NCBI GenBank assembly: GCA_947246475.1
Contig: CAMXSH010000004.1
Location: 26,701-90,700 of the forward strand
Length of the DNA: 64,000 nt
Direction: 5' to 3'
Origin: an uncultured Roseburia sp.
Lineage (GTDB): Bacteria > Bacillota > Clostridia > Lachnospirales > Lachnospiraceae
Position 1 is the stretch's first letter. Each line of letters starts with the position of its first letter. Shown one piece after another: positions 51,041 through 64,000 of this stretch. The notes beneath the pieces are model-generated. The model did no database searches, was not told the origin of the DNA, and saw only the letters and a list, made by a program, of their open reading frames with translations. A program made the position numbers and the translations under genes.

Positions 51041-51145
51041 ATATTGACCAGGTGAATTAAAATTGTTTTTCTTCGGTACAAACAGAAATAAATGTGTTAT
51101 ACTATATTCAGTTCGTTGTGTAAGAATTAAAGGAGAGCAGTGCTT

Positions 51146-52330
51146 ATGTTTAGAAAATTAAAAGTTGACAATTTTAAATCATTAGTGAATTTTTCTATTG
51201 ATTTTTCGCCTATGAGTGTGATTATTGGCAACAATGCCACAGGCAAGAGTAGTGTTTTGCAGGCAATTGATTTCTTGTGCAGTTCAGTAAAAGAAGATTT
51301 TGGGATTATGTTAGAACGTCGGGGCTGGTCGGCAGATAATATCAAGTCTAAATTAATAAATTCAAACAAAATTCATTTTGAGAGTAATATTTTACTTTAT
51401 TCGGATGAAGGAGATCTTAGTTATGACTGGAAAATGGTTTTGTCGATTTATACTGGAAAAAATGAAGTGAGTTTGCTCTCTGAAAGTCTTGTGTGTAATG
51501 GAGAAGAATTGTTAGTGTATCAAAAGGGGAAAGATGGACTGATTAAAGATGAATATAAAGATATTAATATCTTACCCAGAGCGCTGGTGATTCATTCCTC
51601 TGTATTACGAATGTTGAACCGAGATGAGAAGTTGGATTTTCGGATTAAACGTTTTGTTGACTTTTTAGAAAAGTCTGCTTCTTTTGAGATGCTTTCGCCA
51701 AATGAAATGAGACTTAGCAGCCGTGGTGTGAAAAAAAGCATTGGAATGTCTGGGAAAAATTTACCATCATTTATAAAGCAAATGACATCAGAGCAAAAAA
51801 AAAGTTTTATGAATAAGCTGACGTTTCTGTTGGGTGATAGAATTTCTGGAGTAGATGCTAAGACGCAGGGAAAACCTGGTTGGACTCAGATCGATAGTGT
51901 GGAAAAGTATAAAAATAAGGAGATCCATGTATCTTCAAAAGAGATGAGCGATGGAATGCTACGCTTGTTAGCGTTTGTTGCTATCAGTGAAATAAAAGAG
52001 TCCAATGCAACAATGCTTTTAGACGAGGTAGAGAATGGTGTAAATACGAATTATGCGGAGCAGTTGTTAGAACTTCTTGGGAAAATGTATGAAGAGAGAG
52101 GACATCAGTTGATTTTGACAACTCATAGCACGGTATTTATGGACTATATTCCACCAGAAAATATTGTTTATCTGTATCGGGATGATGACGGATACACAAA
52201 GTCTGTGCAACTTTTTGAAAGAGAACAGATGAAAGAACAACTGGACTATATGTATCCAGGAGAGATATTGCTTAATATGTCACAAATGGAGTTGTTGGAT
52301 AAATTACTTGCATATCGTGAGGAAGGTTGA
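51146..52330 (+). CDS. ABC/SMC-like AAA ATPase (AAA_15/AAA_21, COG4637-like)
   Basis: N-terminal KLKVDNFKSL, Walker A GNNATGKSS, signature-like MSDGMLRLL, Walker B LLDEVENG and H-switch LTTHS. Confidence 0.9.
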   Translation: MFRKLKVDNFKSLVNFSIDFSPMSVIIGNNATGKSSVLQAIDFLCSSVKEDFGIMLERRGWSADNIKSKLINSNKIHFESNILLYSDEGDLSYDWKMVLSIYTGKNEVSLLSESLVCNGEELLVYQKGKDGLIKDEYKDINILPRALVIHSSVLRMLNRDEKLDFRIKRFVDFLEKSASFEMLSPNEMRLSSRGVKKSIGMSGKNLPSFIKQMTSEQKKSFMNKLTFLLGDRISGVDAKTQGKPGWTQIDSVEKYKNKEIHVSSKEMSDGMLRLLAFVAISEIKESNATMLLDEVENGVNTNYAEQLLELLGKMYEERGHQLILTTHSTVFMDYIPPENIVYLYRDDDGYTKSVQLFEREQMKEQLDYMYPGEILLNMSQMELLDKLLAYREEG

Positions 52331-52331
52331 T

Positions 52332-53060
52332 ATGATGAAAATTGCTATAACCGGTGAGGGAAACACGGATTATGGGAAAAAAGAGTATGGTACAGGAGAG
52401 TGGTCGCCAGGACCAGCAATCATTTATGCTGAAAAAATAGCAAAAGAGCAAGGAATGAATGTAGAACTGTTGCCAATTGAAAAACAAGACGTCATGAAAG
52501 TAAGAGTGCAAGGACGTTCTACAAAGGGACTGTCTGGAAGAGGCATTCCGGCTAAGAAATTCATGATATTGAAGAATAAGAATAATTGTGATGCCGGAAT
52601 ATTTTACTGTGATGCTGATAAGGGAACAGGAACCAAAAGCAGCAATTGCTCAGCGGTCGTTAAACATTATGAAGAGGTGTATGAAGAAGTAAAGAATGGA
52701 TTGAGTTCAGATCAAGCCATTCCAATGATACCCTTAAGTATGATAGAGTGTTGGATGTTAGGAGATAAAGCAGCTTTGGAACAAATATTTCATCTTTCTA
52801 TTTCTGAAAGTAAACTGCCGGATAAGCCAGAGTATGTCTGGGGAGCAAAAACGGATCCTGATAGTGACTATCCGAAAAATTATTTTGTACGACTAATTCG
52901 TAGCTTGGATCGTCGGTATGGTACATATCAATCTTGTCAGGAAGATTTTAATAAAATTGCAGAGCACTCAACAATCTCAACATTACGAAAAACCTGTCCT
53001 CTTAGTTATGAACGTTTTTACACAGATTTTATTAATTTGCTTAAAAATGTAAATAAATGA
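52332..53060 (+). CDS. TOPRIM-like protein (DUF4276-like)
   Basis: ITGEGNTD (conserved Glu), YCDAD (DxD), MIECWMLGD, PE...YPK and CPLSYERF; starts 2 nt after the ATPase stop. Confidence 0.7.
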   Translation: MMKIAITGEGNTDYGKKEYGTGEWSPGPAIIYAEKIAKEQGMNVELLPIEKQDVMKVRVQGRSTKGLSGRGIPAKKFMILKNKNNCDAGIFYCDADKGTGTKSSNCSAVVKHYEEVYEEVKNGLSSDQAIPMIPLSMIECWMLGDKAALEQIFHLSISESKLPDKPEYVWGAKTDPDSDYPKNYFVRLIRSLDRRYGTYQSCQEDFNKIAEHSTISTLRKTCPLSYERFYTDFINLLKNVNK

Positions 53061-54083: not shown

Positions 54084-54428
54084 GGGCTTGTACTGGTTTC
54101 GACAGGCCGGCTGAAGATGGAGAAGCTATCCGTGGGCTGTGACCACGTTAAAACGCAGAAAAAATTAAACGCTGACGATAATAGATTAGCATACGCAGCC
54201 TAAGTGCTGCTGTCTGACCTGGAGCACCTACACTCTGGGAGCCAGGCATCAATGATGTAGGAAACGACGTATATTAAGCTTTGCGTATACGGGCGTATCA
54301 TGAAGCTACTAAAGCCTGAAGGATGTTCATTTCCGTCAGGTGGAGGGAATGTAAAAGAATGAACTATGATAGTAGAAGTACATGGGATTCCGGTTTGGAC
54401 GCGGGTTCGATTCCCGCCAGGTCCACCA
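54084..54428 (+). ncRNA. ssrA: tmRNA; tag peptide (A)DDNRLAYAA encoded at 54171-54203
   Basis: 5' GGGCTTGTACTGGTTTCGAC pairs with 3' CAGGTCCACCA including a G.U pair; T-arm GCGGGTTCGATTCCCGC; internal ORF GCT GAC GAT AAT AGA TTA GCA TAC GCA GCC TAA. Confidence 0.97.
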
Positions 54429-56118
54429 GAAAGTTCTTACTCCAACCCTTACCAAAAAAATTTAATAAGCGGTTGGGTATTGTGGATAGGAAGCTCGTGA
54501 GCATTTGCTCACGAGCTTCTGCGTTCTCTGCAGTATTATATTTAGCAACCTCATCTTTGATCGGTTCTACCAGCATCGTAAATGGTTCAGCAAACTCTGC
54601 TGTCACTTTTCCGTCGGAACCAATCAGCAGGCGTTCAAAGATAGCCTGGTTCATTAGCTTCTTCATCTTATCATTTGCCAAACGGTAGGTCATGCCACAG
54701 TCAGTAATCAGTTCAATGGCATCGTCCAGTCGTTCTATAATCGTGGTAAACGTATAGTCATATGCTTTGGTCTGATGATCGATTGTGGCAAGCTGCTTAG
54801 CGATTTTCTGTTGTTCACTTTTAAGTAGGTCAAGTGGGATGGCATCGTTGTAATGTGCCTCAAGCAGTTTCTTACGCTGCCTCTCCAGCTTATCTTTCTC
54901 CCGGCGCAGCCCGTCTAACTCGGTTTCGTATTTATCACGTTCTTTTTCTATATTCTGCCTCAGCCAGTCTTCCAGATAACTGGCTATTTGGGGAGGGAAA
55001 GAATATCGGTCATAAATCTGTTCCACTTGCCGCTCGACATCCGCAATCAATACCGCCCGCTGTTTACAGTCCGTACGTTTGCTATGCCGTCCCCCGCAGA
55101 CAAAATACGGATAGCGGATGCCGGTATGGGATTTGGTATAGTTGACAATCATCCGTGCCCCACAGTTTTTACAGAAAACACTGCCCTTTAAGAAATGAGG
55201 GTGTTCACGGGTGCGCTCGCCGTTGATATGCGATTCCAGAATATCCTGCACCTGCTGCCAGGTGTCGGCATCTGTCAGTGCCGGGTGTGTCCCCTCATAT
55301 TCTGCGCCTTGGTATGACACAATGCCCTTGTAATAAGGATTTATCAGTATCTTGTTCAAGGATTTTTTGTTGATGGGCTGGGATGGGATTCTGGGCGTGG
55401 CACGGGTAGTCAGACCGCAGGCTGCCAGATGTTCTGCCAAATCCTGTACCGTCCAGTTGCCGGTGGCATATTCCTCAAATGCCAGCTTAATCAATGGGGC
55501 GCGCTCTTCATCCAGTATGACTGTCCGTTCCTCCCGTCCCTTATCGTCTGTACGCCGGATATTGAGGTAGCCAAGCGGAGCACGGCTGGGCGTCCCTCCT
55601 CCTTTAACTTTCTCGTTCAGGCCCTTTTTAACTTCGTTTGCCAGATTTTGTGAGTAAAACTCGGCGATGGAACTCATAATGCCATGCAGCAGCATTCCGG
55701 CAGGGGTATCATCTATGCTTTCTGAAGCTGATACCAGCTGGATGCCGCATTCACGCAATGTGCGCATAATGTCAACGTCATCACCGCGGTTGCGTGCGAG
55801 ACGGTCGACCTTATGTACAATCACGTAATCAATCCTGTCGGCATTTTCTTTGACATATTCCAGCATTTTCTGGAGTTCCGGGCGGTCTGCCGATTTGGCG
55901 GAAGTACCCCGGTCAACAAATTCCTTGCCAACCATTGCGCCCATGGAGAGTGCTTTTTTCTTGTTCGCTTCTCTCTGCGCAGGAATAGAGAACCCCTCAT
56001 CTGCACCGCCGCCACGTTCTGCCTGTCCGCGCGTAGAAACCCGGAGGTATGATACGGCAAACTTCGGTGTCATGGCATCGGTCAGTGACTGCATGGGGTT
56101 AGCTGTAGTGTATTCCAT
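54364..56118 (-). CDS. Large serine recombinase (integrase)
   Basis: YLRVST catalytic Ser motif, KVDRLARN, AEFYSQNLANEVKKG, recombinase domain (APLGY, NPYYKG), zinc ribbon CKNCG...C...C and a coiled coil. Confidence 0.95.
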   Translation of the reverse strand: MEYTTANPMQSLTDAMTPKFAVSYLRVSTRGQAERGGGADEGFSIPAQREANKKKALSMGAMVGKEFVDRGTSAKSADRPELQKMLEYVKENADRIDYVIVHKVDRLARNRGDDVDIMRTLRECGIQLVSASESIDDTPAGMLLHGIMSSIAEFYSQNLANEVKKGLNEKVKGGGTPSRAPLGYLNIRRTDDKGREERTVILDEERAPLIKLAFEEYATGNWTVQDLAEHLAACGLTTRATPRIPSQPINKKSLNKILINPYYKGIVSYQGAEYEGTHPALTDADTWQQVQDILESHINGERTREHPHFLKGSVFCKNCGARMIVNYTKSHTGIRYPYFVCGGRHSKRTDCKQRAVLIADVERQVEQIYDRYSFPPQIASYLEDWLRQNIEKERDKYETELDGLRREKDKLERQRKKLLEAHYNDAIPLDLLKSEQQKIAKQLATIDHQTKAYDYTFTTIIERLDDAIELITDCGMTYRLANDKMKKLMNQAIFERLLIGSDGKVTAEFAEPFTMLVEPIKDEVAKYNTAENAEAREQMLTSFLSTIPNRLLNFFGKGWSKNFLVDLAGIEPASKPESHVLLLS

Positions 56119-56356: not shown

Positions 56357-57205
56357 TTATTTGCCATAATCTTTACCGCATTCGTTTTCTATGGATTCTT
56401 CCGCCTCTTCGCCTACTGGAACAGTAACAGATTCTGTAGGTTCGGAACTCGCCACGCCTTCTGCCAACCGTTCTGGCTGATGGCCAGACTTCCAGCTGCT
56501 GTTGCCGCTTAGGTTTCGGAGCAGGATTTTCCGGGCAGATTTGTATTCGTCCCCGATAAATCCCAGACGGATGAGGAATAAACGCATCTCATATTTGGCA
56601 TTCTCCACCAGCTTTTCTGTGGCAGTAACCCGTCTCTGTGTCTTTGCCATGCGGCAGATGGCGGCAACCAGACGGCTGTATGCGTCAGCTTCGCCCTCCA
56701 AACCCTGCCTGGTAAACCATGGGAAAGAGATTTTTCCATCGGCTTCCTTAATATCTAAGGTTTCTGTTTTGAGGGCTTGCTTTAGCAGTGTCTCCTTACT
56801 GGCGATAATCTTTAGCAGATTCTCCCTTGCCAGCGGGGTAAACCCAGTATCCGGGACTGTGATAATCAGCTTGTCTGGCTGCTTTGGAATTGTTCCAGTA
56901 TCTGCCGATGCCTCCCCAGAGCTGCTGTTTGCTGTGACATCTTCCTCTGCCGTGTTTTCTGCCGCTGCATCTTCCGCCACAAAGCCTTGCTCTTGCAATG
57001 CCCTGATTAGGTTATTGGTAGTTTCCGAATTGGTTTCTTCCGGCAGCGTCAGAACACCTGCCCGGTCAATATGGCAGCCGCCTACGATGTAGGCAAAGCT
57101 GGGTGCTCCCTGATACACAGCAGGGGAATTTACTATTTGGCTGACAGCCTCCACCAACGGTTTTCTGTCGCTGCCGGTAAGTTTGTAATGGTATTGGAAG
57201 TTCAT
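56357..57205 (-). CDS. Uncharacterised mobile-element protein (often labelled 'virulence protein') sharing a C-terminal domain with the amidoligase
   Basis: AAAGGAGG RBS before ATG 57205. GxDRKxLV...YxGAPSFAY...SFPWF...RLGFIGDEYK pattern recalled from Firmicute elements; no catalytic motif recognised. Confidence 0.75.
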   Translation of the reverse strand: MNFQYHYKLTGSDRKPLVEAVSQIVNSPAVYQGAPSFAYIVGGCHIDRAGVLTLPEETNSETTNNLIRALQEQGFVAEDAAAENTAEEDVTANSSSGEASADTGTIPKQPDKLIITVPDTGFTPLARENLLKIIASKETLLKQALKTETLDIKEADGKISFPWFTRQGLEGEADAYSRLVAAICRMAKTQRRVTATEKLVENAKYEMRLFLIRLGFIGDEYKSARKILLRNLSGNSSWKSGHQPERLAEGVASSEPTESVTVPVGEEAEESIENECGKDYGK

Positions 57206-57296
57206 GTTTCCTCCTTTCTTCCACACACATCTATCACTCAGACTGCCAAAAACAGCAAGCCTTGATTTTATTTGGAGATGTGCGGGAATATCCGGG

Positions 57297-57485
57297 TTAT
57301 TCATCGGCTGTGGCTCTGCCGGTCAGAATAAAATTGGCATATTCTTTCCGGTGTTCTTCCAGATAAATAACCAGCTCATAGTAGCCTTCACGGTTGGCAA
57401 TATACTGCACCATGTTTGCATCAAACATATTCGTTTCCCCGGCTGCCCGGATGGCGAGAATCTGCTCTTTCACGGTTTCTGTCAT
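57297..57485 (-). CDS. DUF5049-like small protein (62 aa)
   Basis: VKEQILAIR...TNMFD...YELVIYLEEHRKEYANFILTG; GGAGG RBS before ATG 57485. Confidence 0.75.
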   Translation of the reverse strand: MTETVKEQILAIRAAGETNMFDANMVQYIANREGYYELVIYLEEHRKEYANFILTGRATADE

Positions 57486-57984
57486 GGGAATTACCTCCTC
57501 CCCGGTATTTTTCTGCCAGATATGTCTCCCACACAGAGTCAAGGACAGCCTGGCGCAGCACTCCGGTGTCAAAACCAGAGGATTCGTAGCCCTGCCGGAT
57601 CGTTTCAAAATAGCTTCGGGATGGCGTATCATAGGGATGGTGCGCCTCATTCATAATGTAGACCATGGCGCTCATCCGTCTGCGGTTTACCGTTATCCTT
57701 AACATTTCTTTGCGGTAGAGGTGGGGATAGCCTTCATACATATCCAGGCTTCGCTCATCACCGGGCTGCAGCCGCCAGATCAATACTGGCACCTGGCTGC
57801 CCTCATGTTTTTCTACCGTTGCCACGGCAGTGTTTTTGCCGTGGAACATCAGCCGCCAGTTGCGGAGAAATGTTGTTCCCACAATTTCCGCAGTGGGGCA
57901 GCGCCTTGCCATCTGTTCGATGTTGAGGTTAGAACCGTAGGCAATATAGAATCTGTCTCTAGCTGGATTATTATTTTTACTCAT
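57421..57984 (-). CDS. Gamma-glutamylcyclotransferase (AIG2/GGCT-like)
   Basis: YIAYGSNLN..QM..RCP and LDMYEGYPHLY (catalytic Glu) motifs; coupled to the amidoligase stop codon. Confidence 0.88.
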   Translation of the reverse strand: MSKNNNPARDRFYIAYGSNLNIEQMARRCPTAEIVGTTFLRNWRLMFHGKNTAVATVEKHEGSQVPVLIWRLQPGDERSLDMYEGYPHLYRKEMLRITVNRRRMSAMVYIMNEAHHPYDTPSRSYFETIRQGYESSGFDTGVLRQAVLDSVWETYLAEKYRGGGNSHDRNRERADSRHPGSRGNEYV

Positions 57985-58937
57985 AGGTTTCGTCCTCCAT
58001 TCTCAGTATTTCTGATGCCTATATGGCTTCTGACATTTTCCCTTGAACCATACCGCCAGGCGGCATTGCCGTCTAAATGCTGGTATAGATGTTCCCGGCA
58101 ACTCTTAAACTCGTCACCGATAAACCCGATGCGGTTCAGCCACACGCGCATGGCAAACTTCTCATTTTCCTCCTGCACTTTCCGGCTGCTGGCGCTTTTC
58201 TGCGTCAACGCCTGATGGTTCAGGGCGAGTGCCAGCACAATGTAGGCACGGATTTTCCCGGCATGCAGTGTCCCGTTAAACCCTCTCAGCTCAACAGTAT
58301 GGTTGCCATGGAAAAAGCTGTGTAGGTTGAGGAAGTAGTAACGGCTGCTGTTGTAGTGGCTGTTACGGTTTCCAGGATACTTCTCATACCAGATACTCTC
58401 AATCTGCTCAAAGGTTGTCGGTTTCTCCCTGTTCATCCGTTCCACGAGGTAGGCATCCATCTTTTTACAGTAACGCATCCGCTCCGGTGCAATCTGCAGT
58501 GCTTTATAAAGCAGGTCATTGTGTGCATAAATGATGTTAATAAAGTTGCGAATACTCCTCGGCGTATGGTCTGCCCCGTTCAGGTGGATGTGGATGCCGC
58601 AGGATTTGTTTGCAAACCCACCGGCTTTGCGCAGACGCCTTGCCAGCGCCTGCACCGTGCCGATATCCTCCTGGTAGAGCAGGATGGGGCTGACCAGCTC
58701 CACGCTGAAATGGTCGTCCGCACCGATGGTGTGGTTTCCGTTTTTGCGCTGGCAGTGAATGCTGCCGTCAGACATAAACTTCCATATGCGCCCGTCAGAC
58801 GCAGTGACTTTTTGGGTATTATAGTAATCCCCTGGGGCGGCGGTTGTGCCGTCCAGGTAATTTGCAGCGGTTTCCGCTGCCTTTTCCCGGGTAATCCCGG
58901 TAAACTCGGCTTCAATGCCGAACTGGTTGGTAAACAT
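57981..58937 (-). CDS. Putative amidoligase (COOH-NH2 ligase, Amidoligase_2-like)
   Basis: FGIEAEFTG, WKFMSDGSI, VELVSPIL, SCGIHIH, SRYYFLN and TVELRGFNGTL motifs; AAGGAGG RBS before ATG 58937. Confidence 0.88.
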   Translation of the reverse strand: MFTNQFGIEAEFTGITREKAAETAANYLDGTTAAPGDYYNTQKVTASDGRIWKFMSDGSIHCQRKNGNHTIGADDHFSVELVSPILLYQEDIGTVQALARRLRKAGGFANKSCGIHIHLNGADHTPRSIRNFINIIYAHNDLLYKALQIAPERMRYCKKMDAYLVERMNREKPTTFEQIESIWYEKYPGNRNSHYNSSRYYFLNLHSFFHGNHTVELRGFNGTLHAGKIRAYIVLALALNHQALTQKSASSRKVQEENEKFAMRVWLNRIGFIGDEFKSCREHLYQHLDGNAAWRYGSRENVRSHIGIRNTENGGRNL

Positions 58938-59169: not shown

Positions 59170-59394
59170 CTATGACATGATATCCCCCTTATTTTCTGCC
59201 GGCAGATACCCGGCCAAAGCGGTTTTTGCCAGGGATGCCGTCTCTTTGTTCGTTTCTTTCTCTTTCGCATTCTCGATTGCAATAGCAATAAGCGCCCTCC
59301 CAATCTTTTCTATATCAGGGTGTTCCCGAAAGTCTGGTGTAACCCTTACATTATGAGCAGATGACGGCCGTCCACGTTTTCTTTTATTGTTCAT
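59170..59394 (-). CDS. Small basic-then-helical protein (74 aa), possible DNA-binding protein
   Basis: ATG overlaps the MTase TGA; KRKRGRPS AT-hook-like segment followed by an amphipathic helix (PDIEKIGRALIAIAI). Confidence 0.6.
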   Translation of the reverse strand: MNNKRKRGRPSSAHNVRVTPDFREHPDIEKIGRALIAIAIENAKEKETNKETASLAKTALAGYLPAENKGDIMS

Positions 59395-60563
59395 GCTGCC
59401 TCCTTTTCTGCCCCGGCGGCTGCATTTTCCAGCCATACGGCTTTAAGGCGCAGGCCAAGGGCGTGTATCACATTGACGGTTACGGCATTGCCAGCCTGTT
59501 TATATGCCTGAGTATCAGAAGTCACAGCCAGCAGTTTATCAATCTGCTTATCAGAAAACCCCTGCAGCCGCAGGCATTCTTTCGGGGTAAGGCGCCGGAT
59601 CCGCATATCCGTGTCCACAACCGCCTTATCGGCATGCGTGGTCAGGGTGTAGGAAATGCCATGCCCTACACGTGCGCGTTTTTGGTTCTGGCTGACATAG
59701 GAAGTGTCGACAGAATCGCCGGGTTTCGCCTCACTGTATCCCCGCCTGGTGGCCTCTTTGATGAGGAGGACGCCATCGCGTGCCTGCCCGCTGCCAAGCC
59801 CTTTGGCATAGCTGGCAGTAAGGGTGCGGGCGGACTCCCGGGTATCCGAGATGCCGTCCCGGCTGCTGCAGCTTACGAGATACAGCCCGGTTTTCCCGCC
59901 ACCTCCCCCGGAACTGGCGAGCTGGGTGCAGGCTACGCCGCTGGGGTCGTAGACTCTTGCCCCCTGCGCCCCGCCGACGATCTGTATAAGAGCTTTTCCA
60001 TCTGTTCCCGGGAGAGGAAGTATTTTTCCGGCACATTTTGGATCAAGATATCCGACAATGTAGACCCGTTTCCGTGACTGCGGGACTCCAAAACTCTTGC
60101 TGTTAAGCACCTGCCATTCCACACCATACCCAAGTTCTGATAGCGTGCCAAGGATGGCTGTAAATGTCCGTCCTTCGTCATGGCTGAGCAGTCCGGGAAC
60201 GTTTTCAAGTATAAAAAACGCAGGGTGTTTGGCTTTAAGGATACGCGCGATGTCAAAAAAGAGCGTGCCTCTCGCATCCTGGAAACCACAGCGTTTTCCG
60301 GCAATGGAGAAACTCTGGCAGGGGAATCCTGCGCAGAGCAGGTCAAAGTCCGGCATTTCTTCTGCTTTGATGGTTGTTGCGTCTTCATAGTAGGTTTCCT
60401 TTGGGTTAATGTGATACATATTCCGGTATGCCTTGTCGGCATGCGTGTCAATCTCGGAGTGGCCGATGCAGGCAAAGCCCCCGGCTCGCTCCAGGCCGGC
60501 ACGGAATCCCCCGATACCGGCAAACATATCGAAAAAACGAATATTCTTTATGTTCATGGGCAT
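59391..60563 (-). CDS. DNA (cytosine-5) methyltransferase
   Basis: Motifs I (FAGIGG), IV (GFPCQSFS), VI (LENVPG), VIII (PQSRKRVYIVG), IX (RRLTPKECLRLQGF) and X (YKQAGNAV). Confidence 0.96.
   Translation of the reverse strand: MPMNIKNIRFFDMFAGIGGFRAGLERAGGFACIGHSEIDTHADKAYRNMYHINPKETYYEDATTIKAEEMPDFDLLCAGFPCQSFSIAGKRCGFQDARGTLFFDIARILKAKHPAFFILENVPGLLSHDEGRTFTAILGTLSELGYGVEWQVLNSKSFGVPQSRKRVYIVGYLDPKCAGKILPLPGTDGKALIQIVGGAQGARVYDPSGVACTQLASSGGGGGKTGLYLVSCSSRDGISDTRESARTLTASYAKGLGSGQARDGVLLIKEATRRGYSEAKPGDSVDTSYVSQNQKRARVGHGISYTLTTHADKAVVDTDMRIRRLTPKECLRLQGFSDKQIDKLLAVTSDTQAYKQAGNAVTVNVIHALGLRLKAVWLENAAAGAEKEAA
59933..60523 (-). other. Stop-free +1 overlapping frame inside the MTase gene (possible second polypeptide)
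   Basis: 196-aa ORF with an internal ATG at 60277; contains TLSDILIQNVPEKYFLS. Translation is unproven. Confidence 0.4.
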
Positions 60564-60666
60564 TCTTCCTTTCTTAGAATTACTAAAACAGTTACAGTAA
60601 CAGTTTGTCATCTCCAGACCCTTAGCACAGCTAAGGCTGGCAGGGCAGGGTAAACTGGCAAATTTG

Positions 60667-61035: not shown

Positions 61036-61995
61036 CTAACACAGCATGGCATCATCCCCTCCATACCGGATCAGCCGGTCCAGTTCCTCATCCGTGATGA
61101 CGGCAAAGAGCCGGGGCTGCCCCACAAAAGCGGCGTGGATATGCTCCGCTAAATGTTCTTTGCGTTTCTTAGTTGGCACGATCCAGACCGCCAGCGGGAA
61201 CATGCCATGTTCTTTCTGCTCCAGTCCGCTGTGGTAGTATTTGTGGTAACGCTGGCATTTTTCTATAATCTTGGTGGGAGATTCGGTGTCCAGGTCAATT
61301 TCCAGAAAATAGCGGTCTTCATATTCTGCGGAGGTAAGAGCAGCATACAGGTCTGGTTTGAGGGCAACATGTTTTCCATGTTCACTGTAAACACGCCAGC
61401 ATTCCGGCTCCGGCTGCAGTGCGGACAGTTCCAGTCCTGTCTCCTGGCTGATCTCCAGAATACGGATGGAGGCTTCTGCCACGGCGAGGGTATGTGCCAG
61501 GAAATATGGGCTTGGTTCAAATGTCCTCCTTATCGGATAGGGTTTATGTTCATGCAGGCGCAGCAGACGCTCCCCGGCATGGGTGGTATGCCAGATGAGG
61601 GATGCCGAGCCTGCCCTCACTCCACCAATGCGCCGTGAGAGGCTGTCAACCAGCCCTAATTCCTTCAGCTTTTTGAGGTTGCGGCTGGCAGCCCGCAGGG
61701 CAGCGAAGGGATTTGCCGCATTCGTAAAATGCAGCCGCTGAACCTGCCCGCTCATCAGATAGCGGTATCGCCGAACCGAGAGCAAGACCTCCTTGTCACG
61801 CTGACTGAGGGAAATGTCCAGTTCTTCCAGTTTCTTCTTAGACAAACGGAGATGCTGTCCAGAGGTGCTGCTGCCAGTCTGGGAATCCGTAGTGGGAACG
61901 GAGTAGGAATCGCAGACCTTATACCGGGAAAATCCCGATACGGAGGGAGTTTCCGCTTTTGCTTTGCTGGCTCCGTTCGTTAGTCGGCTCGTCAT
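61036..61995 (-). CDS. Replication-relaxation (Replic_Relax) family relaxase-like protein
   Basis: N-terminal wHTH-like region, HTLAVAE, LKPDL and FLEIDLDTE (PD-(D/E)xK-like); ATG overlaps the coupling-protein stop. Confidence 0.85.
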   Translation of the reverse strand: MTSRLTNGASKAKAETPSVSGFSRYKVCDSYSVPTTDSQTGSSTSGQHLRLSKKKLEELDISLSQRDKEVLLSVRRYRYLMSGQVQRLHFTNAANPFAALRAASRNLKKLKELGLVDSLSRRIGGVRAGSASLIWHTTHAGERLLRLHEHKPYPIRRTFEPSPYFLAHTLAVAEASIRILEISQETGLELSALQPEPECWRVYSEHGKHVALKPDLYAALTSAEYEDRYFLEIDLDTESPTKIIEKCQRYHKYYHSGLEQKEHGMFPLAVWIVPTKKRKEHLAEHIHAAFVGQPRLFAVITDEELDRLIRYGGDDAMLC

Positions 61996-64000
61996 GGTCG
62001 TTTCCTCCTTCCAATTGTTGCATTTTCCCATTCCTGCCCGGTGTCACATCCGTCAGAAAACATACTGAGGTATTCCTCTTCAATTTGTTCCGCTGGGACA
62101 CCATAGGTGGCTTGGCTCTTTGCCTTCAGTTCTGCGGCATTATGCAGGGCTGGCGGTGGCGGCAGCGTCCTGCCCTGAACCCAGCCAACATTTCTGCCGT
62201 TTGACTGGAATGAGGTATAAATCTGGTAACGGGGCAGTGCCATAAAATCTTCAGCCGTGAGTTCTAGTGCCATCGCTGCTATGTCTTTGGCATCCCGGCT
62301 GTTTAGTCCGAAGACGATTTTGTTCCTGGCGTTGGCGTCTATCCCGGAGCGGATATTAATCGGTAACTGATCACGGTATTGGTGTGCCAGCGTCAGCCCA
62401 ACACCCAAGCCCCTGGCTTGCGCTAAAGCGTCAGAAAGGTCGGTTGGGAGTGACAGATAATCCTGCAGCTCGTCAATATAGATTTCTACAATGTGCCGCT
62501 TCTCGGCTGGGATACCCGCCCTTGACAGCGCCAGAGTCCAGGTTAGTCCAACAATCAGACTGCCGAGCAATCTGGCACTTTCTCCTCCTGTCAAACCTTT
62601 ATTGAGAGGAATCAGTACAATGCGACGCTTGTAGAATAAATCTGTCAGGGAAAACTTTGGCTTTGCCTGTCCTAATACGTTTCTCAGTCCGGGGCGTAAA
62701 AGAAACTGGCGCAGCTTGTTCAGCACGGGTTCAGTCTGCTGTCTACGCTCCGTCTCCCTGAGAGCATTAAACTGCTCCCAGAATGGTTTTAACGCTACCT
62801 TGTCTTTTATGATGCTGGTAATCTTGTAGCGAAAACTATCATCAGTCAACAGCGGAGGCAACCATAAGAGGGTAGCATTTTCCACTTCCACCAGTGTCAG
62901 CAGTGCCGCATTCAGGATATCTGCGATTCTCACACCCCAGCTGTCACTCCAAATTTCTTTGAGAACCGAAAGGATGGCATCGGCAATCAACGATGGGTTG
63001 CCATAGTCCTTAAACGCCAATGGGTTAAACCCACAGGGAGCCGGATCGGACGGGTCAATTACCACCACCTCGTCCATGCGTTCTTCTGGAATCCGCATTA
63101 GTATATCTGTTACCAAATCTGCCTTCGGATCAAGCACGAGGACACTTCTCCCGGCGTTAATATCCGCCAGAATCAGATGTAGCATGGCAGTTGACTTGCC
63201 GCTACCAGTCGGACCGATCAGGTGGCAATTTTCTAGGCTGTCCCATGGGGAAATACTCAGTTTCTTGGGATTTACTGCATCCATGGAAACGGCAAAGCTG
63301 CGGTCATTATTCTTGTTGATGGGACTGCGATACCAGTCCGGTGGTAGTGTCTGTTTGGGATGCAACCCCGGTGTCCCCGGCAGTTCTTCCTCCCCAGCGG
63401 CTAATAACAGGAAATTTGCAAGCTCCTTCGACGAAAGCTGCAGGGGAAAATGCCAGGGGATGCGGTTATTGTTAAGGTCGTCTGGTTTGGTGGATTCTTC
63501 ATGGATATGCACCCCTGCTGTCTCCAGCACCTTAAACGCGCTGACAACGTTCCGTAAGCGAGAAACCGCCCCATCCCCAGACACTCCAATGCGGATTGCT
63601 GCCTGGAAGATATACTGTTCGGCTTTCTCCCGGACTGCTTTCCGGGTTTCTGCGGAGGCTTTCTGCACATCACCCAGCAGAATCTGTAACCATGTTGCAT
63701 TCGGGTCCGATAAGTTGGCTGGCACTGGGGAAGGTGCATTTGCTCTCCCCAGTATAATCTGCACGACAGCTTCCGAGTCGCTCTTGTTTTCTGATAATGC
63801 TGCCAGTCCTGCTCGGATCACTGCCTGTGTGATGTCAGTCTTGAGGGGCAGGGACGGATGGCTGATTTTGAGCTGTCTGGCGGTACTAATAGGTGTGCGT
63901 GCGGTTTCTTCTGCATCATGGAACTCGATACTGCCATGGGCTTTTACTGCTTTTTCTATGTCCGCAATATACCTTTTATCTGCACCCAGAAGATAATGAA
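61992..64000 (-). CDS. Type IV coupling protein / VirD4-TraD-like ATPase, 5' end beyond the window
   Basis: Walker A GPTGSGKST, LDPKAD, FNPL, YIDELQDY (Walker B) and LAHQY. The frame stays open from 63821 up to the window edge. Confidence 0.9.
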   Translation of the reverse strand, partial: HYLLGADKRYIADIEKAVKAHGSIEFHDAEETARTPISTARQLKISHPSLPLKTDITQAVIRAGLAALSENKSDSEAVVQIILGRANAPSPVPANLSDPNATWLQILLGDVQKASAETRKAVREKAEQYIFQAAIRIGVSGDGAVSRLRNVVSAFKVLETAGVHIHEESTKPDDLNNNRIPWHFPLQLSSKELANFLLLAAGEEELPGTPGLHPKQTLPPDWYRSPINKNNDRSFAVSMDAVNPKKLSISPWDSLENCHLIGPTGSGKSTAMLHLILADINAGRSVLVLDPKADLVTDILMRIPEERMDEVVVIDPSDPAPCGFNPLAFKDYGNPSLIADAILSVLKEIWSDSWGVRIADILNAALLTLVEVENATLLWLPPLLTDDSFRYKITSIIKDKVALKPFWEQFNALRETERRQQTEPVLNKLRQFLLRPGLRNVLGQAKPKFSLTDLFYKRRIVLIPLNKGLTGGESARLLGSLIVGLTWTLALSRAGIPAEKRHIVEIYIDELQDYLSLPTDLSDALAQARGLGVGLTLAHQYRDQLPINIRSGIDANARNKIVFGLNSRDAKDIAAMALELTAEDFMALPRYQIYTSFQSNGRNVGWVQGRTLPPPPALHNAAELKAKSQATYGVPAEQIEEEYLSMFSDGCDTGQEWENATIGRRKRP

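Follow-up and report, generated by a model that had tools for sequence, protein, structure and literature searches.

What does a mobile genetic element gain from an amide-bond-forming ligase, an enzyme that could cleave the ligase's presumed product, and two further proteins that appear to be non-catalytic? The question is raised by a four-gene cassette on the minus strand, at 56357-58937 of a 64,000-nucleotide stretch of DNA from an uncultured Roseburia sp. (contig CAMXSH010000004.1, positions 26,701 to 90,700); this whole stretch is called the window here, and features of it are given in its numbering. The four open reading frames (ORFs) are intact and encode an Amidoligase_2 carboxylate-amine ligase, a gamma-glutamyl cyclotransferase (GGCT), a small DUF5049 protein and a protein of 282 amino acids (aa) that we call the partner. 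Our tentative answer, which we hold at a little short of an even chance, is that this is a complete mobile-element Amidoligase_2/AIG2-GGCT cassette in its four-component form, in which the two enzymes would write and erase gamma-glutamyl groups on behalf of the element around the time of its transfer or establishment. The evidence that gives the cassette this form is the identity of the partner, which by profile comparison is a dead copy of the ligase, and a series of gene fusions that tie components to one another.

Two enzymes predicted to be active

The ligase (318 aa; 57981..58937, minus strand) matches PF12224 over nearly the whole model (positions 3-244 of 245; 241.5 bits, E=1.6e-71, cut-off 22) and also PHROG 2443 (E=1.4e-90). 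Its motifs are IEAEF at residues 8-12, DGS at 57-59, ELVSP at 80-84, HIH at 116-118 and ELR at 216-218. A first-pass annotation of this DNA had described the metal and ATP motifs (ExE, DGS, ExVSP, HxH, ExR) as intact, and in a 39-sequence homologue alignment all of them do lie on invariant columns, including those of E9, E11, E80, V82, P84, H116, H118, E216 and R218. Beyond the region covered by the Pfam model, the ligase continues into a basic C-terminal domain (residues ~236-300; 58038..58232, minus strand) that is also present in the partner.

The cyclotransferase (187 aa; 57421..57984, minus strand), of the AIG2/GGACT fold, matches PF06094 (E=1.4e-12, 48.7 bits, cut-off 22.8), PF13772 and PHROG 2520 (E=2.7e-43). 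When it is aligned to human GGCT (2pn7), the YGSNL motif (16-20) is conserved, and Glu84 stands opposite the glutamate of the human QEG motif, which we take to be the catalytic Glu98. Conservation ends near residue 150, and the tail beyond it overlaps the start of the DUF5049 gene. The earlier assignment of the two proteins as an amidoligase and a GGCT is thus borne out by the Pfam and PHROG matches, the motifs and the 2pn7 alignment. An NCBIfam search of the cassette proteins gave no match, and PDB sequence searches with the ligase, the DUF5049 protein and the C-terminal domain shared by ligase and partner returned nothing useful.

The first-pass annotation had placed four genes here, and all are present at its coordinates on the minus strand; the starts that it had chosen at 58937 and 57205 agree with homologues, and ribosome-binding sites of the AGGAGG type precede all homologue-supported starts of the four genes. 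The ligase ATG at 58937 follows the Shine-Dalgarno sequence AAGGAGG, and the stop codon of the ligase and the start codon of GGCT overlap in an ATGA. Judged from sequence, the two enzymes form a translationally coupled pair, of which the ligase looks catalytically active and the GGCT likewise.

In the carboxylate-amine ligase superfamily, which includes glutamine synthetase, gamma-glutamylcysteine synthetase and PafA, ATP activates the gamma-carboxylate of glutamate, to which an amine is then joined; cyclotransferases of the GGCT fold free 5-oxoproline from gamma-glutamyl amides that bear a free alpha-amine. The writing and erasing of gamma-glutamyl groups, as proposed in the first-pass annotation, is the chemistry that the two families imply, at the level of the families. 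In the reading that we favour, the ligase would phosphorylate the gamma-carboxylate of glutamate and link the glutamate to an amine on a target, and the cyclotransferase would undo this gamma-glutamylation, with release of 5-oxoproline.

The same chemistry could instead serve small-molecule metabolism, with the cassette as a fragment of a gamma-glutamyl cycle that makes a gamma-glutamyl peptide or amine, or that converts glutamate into 5-oxoproline at a cost in ATP, and so reprograms the metabolism of the host. Glutathione-like peptide metabolites have indeed been proposed for the ligase family (Iyer, Burroughs and Aravind 2008, PMC2588565), and human GGCT, the closest relative of the cyclotransferase with a solved structure, has small gamma-glutamyl amino acids as its substrates. 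A simple metabolic pair would, however, not be expected to come with a dead paralogue, an accessory domain of basic character and a small protein that resembles a scaffold, and the consistent neighbours of the cassette are methylases and DNA-export genes, not metabolic genes. We therefore regard a metabolic role as quite unlikely.

The partner is a degenerate paralogue of the ligase

The 282-aa partner (56357..57205, minus strand) had been taken for unrelated cargo, and it has no match in Pfam, NCBIfam or PADLOC. It does match PHROG 2443, 'amidoligase enzyme' (E=2.7e-49), over the same region of the profile as the ligase. When profiles built from 55 partner and 76 ligase homologues of related loci were compared by hhalign, they aligned over their full length with a probability of 100% (E=8e-43), and a control comparison of the partner with the GGCT profile gave 0.4%. 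Since the C-terminal stretches of the ligase and the partner are very similar (42% identity over 71 aa by BLASTP, E=1e-15), the profile comparison was repeated without that stretch, and residues 3-149 of the partner still aligned with residues 6-151 of the ligase (probability 99.3%, E=4e-20). The relationship is thus not carried by the C-terminal domain, and the partner is better described as a ligase paralogue than as independent cargo.

In the partner alignment, ExE has become H.K and HxH has become I.T, and the segments that hold ExVSP and ExR are deleted. More distant proteins of the partner type (at loci L066 and L073 and in Clostridium phage CWou-2020b) have preserved a larger part of the ligase's middle region, but none of the catalytic motifs. 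The partner also has conserved surface motifs of its own, namely R14, YQGAPSFAY and FPWF. Its AlphaFold2 (AF2) model has a mean confidence score (pLDDT) of 83.6, with confidently predicted folded parts and a disordered acidic linker at residues 82-108. A Foldseek search with this model found nothing significant in the PDB; in BFVD the top match was a phage amidoligase, at a weak score (E=6.6e-3, template-modelling score ~0.3).

The C-terminal domain of the partner (residues 186-246; 56468..56650, minus strand) is homologous to that of the ligase. In both proteins it is basic, with an isoelectric point (pI) of 9.0 in the ligase and 10.4 in the partner, and in the partner it is predicted by AF2 to consist of helices and a GFIGDE loop. 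No Pfam or PDB relative of this shared domain was found, and the N- and C-terminal pieces of partner and ligase, searched in isolation, gave no Pfam match.

Taken together, the profile alignments indicate that ligase and partner are paralogous over their full length, and that no metal or ATP motif is left in the partner, which has retained the core of the fold and the basic C-terminal domain. Its own conserved motifs and the shared basic domain fit a targeting or regulatory subunit. PHROGs labels the ligase and the partner alike as 'amidoligase enzyme', a 2024 prophage survey lists both under the same name (PMC11318856), and the NCBI annotation of partner relatives is 'virulence-related protein'.

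The DUF5049 protein as a predicted adaptor

The third component (62 aa; 57297..57485, minus strand) matches PF16468 (E=2.6e-30, 104.5 bits, cut-off 28.7). It is acidic (pI 4.7), and its AF2 model consists of four helices (pLDDT 91.8), for which Foldseek found no match in the PDB. The DUF5049 alignment contains no invariant Lys, Cys or Ser, and past the conserved FILTG the C-terminus varies in both length and sequence, with no conserved terminal Glu or Gln. The absence of an invariant acceptor residue and the variable tail make it unlikely that the protein is an acceptor for glutamate or a Pup-like tag, and likewise disfavour the carrier or substrate role that had initially been suggested for it.

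Pup-like tagging of proteins is another conceivable reading. The ligase belongs to the PafA superfamily, a paralogue is present as in PafA/Dop, and a protein of about 60 aa, the approximate size of Pup, is encoded nearby; DUF5049 could then be imagined to be joined by the ligase to lysines of a target. The comparison fails in its details. Dop is active whereas the paralogue here is dead, and the predicted eraser is a cyclotransferase and not a Dop-like enzyme. A Pup tag is small and disordered with a conserved C-terminal Gln or Glu, whereas DUF5049 is modelled as a well-folded four-helix domain and lacks such a residue. Moreover, a cyclotransferase cannot cleave a glutamate whose alpha-amine is in a peptide bond. 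We consider tagging of this kind extremely improbable, and a Pup-like DUF5049 tag was rejected on the variable tail; nor did we find any specific feature that would support the description of the locus as a 'peptide-tag system', as first put forward.

We favour a role for DUF5049 as a subunit or adaptor that acts as a scaffold, in view of its fusions to GGCT and to the partner that are described below. On mobile elements of Firmicutes, DUF5049 generally has the behaviour of a promiscuous adaptor domain. As a separate observation, it occurs fused or adjacent to DUF7678 (with a YDRGWD motif), DUF7768, DUF6329 and DUF3846 (L011 5403-5936, L164 5622-5846, P0197, P0221, P0200, P0218), and a second DUF5049 copy is often found after the relaxase gene.

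Co-occurrence, gene orders and fusions

To see how far the four genes belong together, related loci were collected from one-genome-per-species bacterial contigs (at least 381 loci with close relatives of the ligase) and from IMG/VR (at least 509 viral loci with ligase relatives). Eighty genomic and 80 viral loci were then scored with custom hidden Markov models (HMMs), and co-occurrence was counted only where at least 3 kb flanked the ligase on both sides. Among the 57 genomic loci that this left, GGCT was present in 57/57, DUF5049 in 52/57 and the partner in 45/57, with ligase-like variants of the partner in two more; all four genes were found in 44/57. In the 36 viral loci, GGCT and the partner were each present in 36/36, and DUF5049, and with it the full set, in 33/36. 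The complete cassette is thus kept in 77-92% of loci. Co-occurrence of the four genes across elements had been set beforehand as the test on which the idea of a four-gene system could fail, and it holds.

Two main gene orders are seen. On mobilisable elements with a recombinase and a relaxase, as here, the order is ligase-GGCT-DUF5049-partner, and in phages it is partner-ligase-GGCT-DUF5049; rarer orders were also found. Because the set is retained in both main orders, it appears to stay together through rearrangement.

In three divergent loci (L006, L038 and L116; 45-55% mutual identity), GGCT and DUF5049 form a single reading frame, and in L058 DUF5049 and the partner form one protein of 449 aa. 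When 1.84 billion representative proteins, among which DUF5049 accounts for 1,689 clusters, were searched with a profile, further GGCT-DUF5049 fusions (P0124, P0258) and another fusion of DUF5049 to the partner (P0143) came to light. The fusions are the strongest evidence at hand for joint physical action of the cassette proteins, and the existence of in-frame links between GGCT and DUF5049 and between DUF5049 and the partner suggests that a single complex is likely.

The cassette might nevertheless be two independent accessory sub-modules, the ligase with GGCT and the dead paralogue with DUF5049, that share an island, a methylase-rich accessory slot in phages and mobilisable elements of Firmicutes, and have separate targets. 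Several loci have the ligase and GGCT only, and Clostridium phage CWou-2020b has the partner alone. In Streptococcus phage Javan630 the order is SAM synthetase, adenine methylase, partner, a DUF4314-like ORF, DUF5049 and large terminase, so that partner (E=5.5e-76 with the custom HMM) and DUF5049 (E=3.3e-29) lie between a methylase and the terminase without the enzymes; the readiness of DUF5049 to fuse to many unrelated small domains would also be in keeping with this view. Against it, the GGCT-DUF5049 fusions tie the two halves to each other physically, partner and ligase are paralogues with a C-terminal domain in common, and all four genes are kept in most loci despite the two different orders. 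We find complete independence unlikely. The four-gene unit is best seen as an enzymatic pair and a non-catalytic pair that mostly travel together; since the partner and DUF5049 do occur without the enzymes, they must in addition do something that is independent of them.

Genomic context and a possible role in DNA transfer

The element that carries the cassette abuts a tmRNA gene (54084-54428, on the strand opposite to the recombinase). Its genes in and just beyond the window are co-oriented and comprise an MT-A70 methylase; a VirD4-like coupling protein and a Replic_Relax relaxase (61036..64000, minus strand, continuing past the window end; PF13814, E=7.5e-36; T4SS-DNA_transf, E=2.1e-8, in a 746-aa ORF); an orphan Dcm, that is, a C5-cytosine DNA methyltransferase, just upstream of the cassette (59391..60611, minus strand; PF00145, E=2.8e-81); an 88-aa basic protein; the cassette; and, at the element end, a large serine recombinase with Resolvase, Recombinase and Zn_ribbon_recom domains (54364..56118, minus strand). 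This neighbourhood recurs. Among the 80 genomic loci, a relaxase and coupling protein backbone accompanies the cassette in 47, a Dcm homologue in 36, and a Dcm or MT-A70 homologue in 52. On viral contigs, the cassette is immediately followed by the large terminase gene in 51 cases, with the portal, a ClpP-like protease and capsid genes after it; on the upstream side, 50 loci have ParB-N6 methylases, and Dcm, SAM synthetase and a P27-type small terminase are sometimes found there as well. From orientation and spacing only, we infer that the cassette is co-expressed with the export genes.

The first-pass annotation had put forward entry or superinfection exclusion, or counter-defence, as possible roles. 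Because the cassette is co-oriented with the relaxase, the coupling protein and the integrase, or in phages with the large terminase, and stands beside orphan methylases, we suggest that it acts most likely around transfer or establishment in a new cell, and that it would serve the mobile element and not the host. This is the most economical guess from the association with methylases and DNA-export genes on phages and mobilisable elements alike. The DUF5049 protein and the dead paralogue would then be the non-catalytic scaffold and targeting subunits of one complex with the two enzymes. A more specific version, which we put forward as a long shot, is that in a DUF5049-scaffolded complex the dead paralogue and the basic domain aim the ligase and cyclotransferase at a macromolecule handled in DNA export. 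Candidates would be the DNA of the element, a protein bound to DNA, or one that is exported together with it through the capsid or the coupling protein; the effect of the mark would be felt in the next host, where it would provide a counter-defence of a new kind, loaded in advance and acting in parallel with the neighbouring methylases.

Close to this lies the possibility that the cassette covalently modifies the element's own DNA, or proteins bound to it, before packaging or transfer, as a protection, alongside the methylases, against restriction in the next host. The constant proximity of Dcm, N6 and MT-A70 methylases and SAM synthetase would agree with this, as would a location immediately before the large terminase, or with the relaxase on one side and the integrase on the other, and the basic, predicted helical domain common to ligase and partner (pI 9-10.4) could bind nucleic acid. 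Yet no DNA-binding fold can be assigned to that domain, no pathway for an amine-bearing base is encoded nearby, and about one third of the loci are without methylases, which makes this explanation very improbable.

The overlapping stop and start of a writer and an eraser also recall an enzyme/anti-enzyme toxin-antitoxin or abortive infection system, in which a toxic ligase would be held in check by the cyclotransferase as antidote, and which would stabilise the element or defend the host; the pairing resembles the logic of DarT/DarG-type systems. None of the four proteins, however, matched any defence model in PADLOC-DB (2023 library, E<=0.01), although a negative of this kind does not amount to proof. 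The phage cassette, moreover, lies inside a co-oriented packaging block right before the large terminase, which is not the position of a moron expressed in lysogeny, and relatives of the ligase are found in a range of phages. A toxin-antitoxin function is in our view improbable.

Several observations weigh against the four-component, transfer-linked reading that we favour. The position of the cassette is not universal, as in Faecalibacterium phage Taranis a lone ligase is found next to regulatory genes. The components are separable: neither ligase nor GGCT is present anywhere in the Javan630 record, and at some loci the ligase and GGCT occur alone or with DUF5049. DUF5049 itself is fused to unrelated small domains as well (DUF7678, DUF7768, DUF6329 and DUF3846). 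Promoter and terminator scans were at chance level, and give the operon structure no support. The gamma-glutamyl chemistry is deduced from the two families alone, and the literature that we searched contained no experimental study of the ligase-cyclotransferase cassette and no activity, substrate or phenotype for any member. Finally, a ligase and a cyclotransferase that work on one bond make a futile cycle unless they are separated in time or space. An unseparated pair would do no more than spend ATP on the conversion of glutamate to 5-oxoproline; either the two steps are therefore kept apart, or the net conversion is itself the point.

Relation to known cassettes

A 2008 study described the ligase family and its two pairings, in Firmicutes with an Aig2 cyclotransferase and in Proteobacteria with a glutamine amidotransferase, and states that the ligase-cyclotransferase pair comes without small conserved ORFs (PMC2588565). 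The Roseburia locus shares with the Firmicutes neighbourhood of that study the ligase family, the adjacent cyclotransferase and the deduced gamma-glutamyl amide chemistry; it differs in that a DUF5049 gene and a dead paralogue are present, as they are in most loci examined here, and are linked by fusions to the enzymes.

Related cassettes are found in Clostridium difficile M120, in module B of Tn6164 (PMC3485107), and in Ca. Heliusvirales gut phages (PV036453, PV036446), with a matching run of SAM synthetase/DNA methylase, 'virulence-related protein' (the partner), amidoligase, AIG2/GGCT and terminase genes. Both of these are prophages with the order partner-ligase-GGCT, whereas here the cassette sits on a serine-recombinase element with a relaxase and coupling protein, and the partner is at the cassette end. 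The phage cassettes of Proteobacteria (phiEco32-type; amidoligase, class-II glutamine amidotransferase and GGCT) have the same ligase family on phages, but unlike them the present cassette has no Ntn amidotransferase. Among the cassettes examined, only those of the Firmicutes type had the dead paralogue and the C-terminal domain that it shares with the ligase. Faecalibacterium phage Taranis was considered as a model phage and rejected, as it carries the lone ligase only.

The locus is intact and typical of its kind, a widespread cassette predicted long ago, and does not depart from its hundreds of relatives. What is new is the pseudo-enzyme identity of the partner, the fusion evidence and the separable non-catalytic pair, and these are advances in annotation, not a new kind of system. 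They matter since the cassette, which on gut phages and mobilisable elements has anti-restriction methylases as its neighbours, is very common, and since the dead paralogue, the DUF5049 fusions and the stand-alone non-catalytic pair lead to a defined four-subunit model that can be reconstituted. If the target is a host defence factor or the transferred DNA, the cassette would represent a new class of counter-defence, whereas with a small metabolite as the target it would be an ordinary auxiliary metabolic module.

Other features of the element

The serine recombinase ORF overlaps the 3' end of the tmRNA gene by 65 nucleotides, on the opposite strand. A second, displaced tmRNA 3' end that would mark the far end of the element was found nowhere in the whole assembly, and the contig stops before the element end. 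To the right of the window, two plus-strand genes for a 372-aa protein of no known function and a 472-aa DUF11 surface protein (L001 12640-15231; C4:92639-95230) are conserved with the element in L005, L002 and L017. The element thus reaches beyond the window, with surface-protein cargo.

The 88-aa basic protein (59170-59436, minus strand), encoded between the Dcm and ligase genes, carries KRKRGRP at its N-terminus and has no Pfam match. It co-varies with the type of recombinase: a homologue is present wherever there is a single serine recombinase that is at least 56% identical to the present one, and loci of the two-recombinase type are without it. The protein is a candidate directionality factor or recombinase regulator.

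No type IV secretion genes were recognisable in the 20 kb upstream of a related element in another genome, and the element may be either mobilisable or self-conjugative. The region upstream of an element of the same type in another genome (L166; G001:C23:289000-308700) holds several large ORFs (1089, 407, 400, 316 and 262 aa) with no Pfam match, and likewise shows no sign of type IV secretion genes.

About 1 kb from the tmRNA gene, at 51140-53060 on the plus strand of the window, lie genes for an ABC-type ATPase and a 250-aa neighbour. The ATPase matches the PADLOC candidate system PDC-M25A (E=2.4e-79) and the neighbour, weakly, HEC-01B/PDC-M25B; the two genes probably form a candidate anti-phage system.

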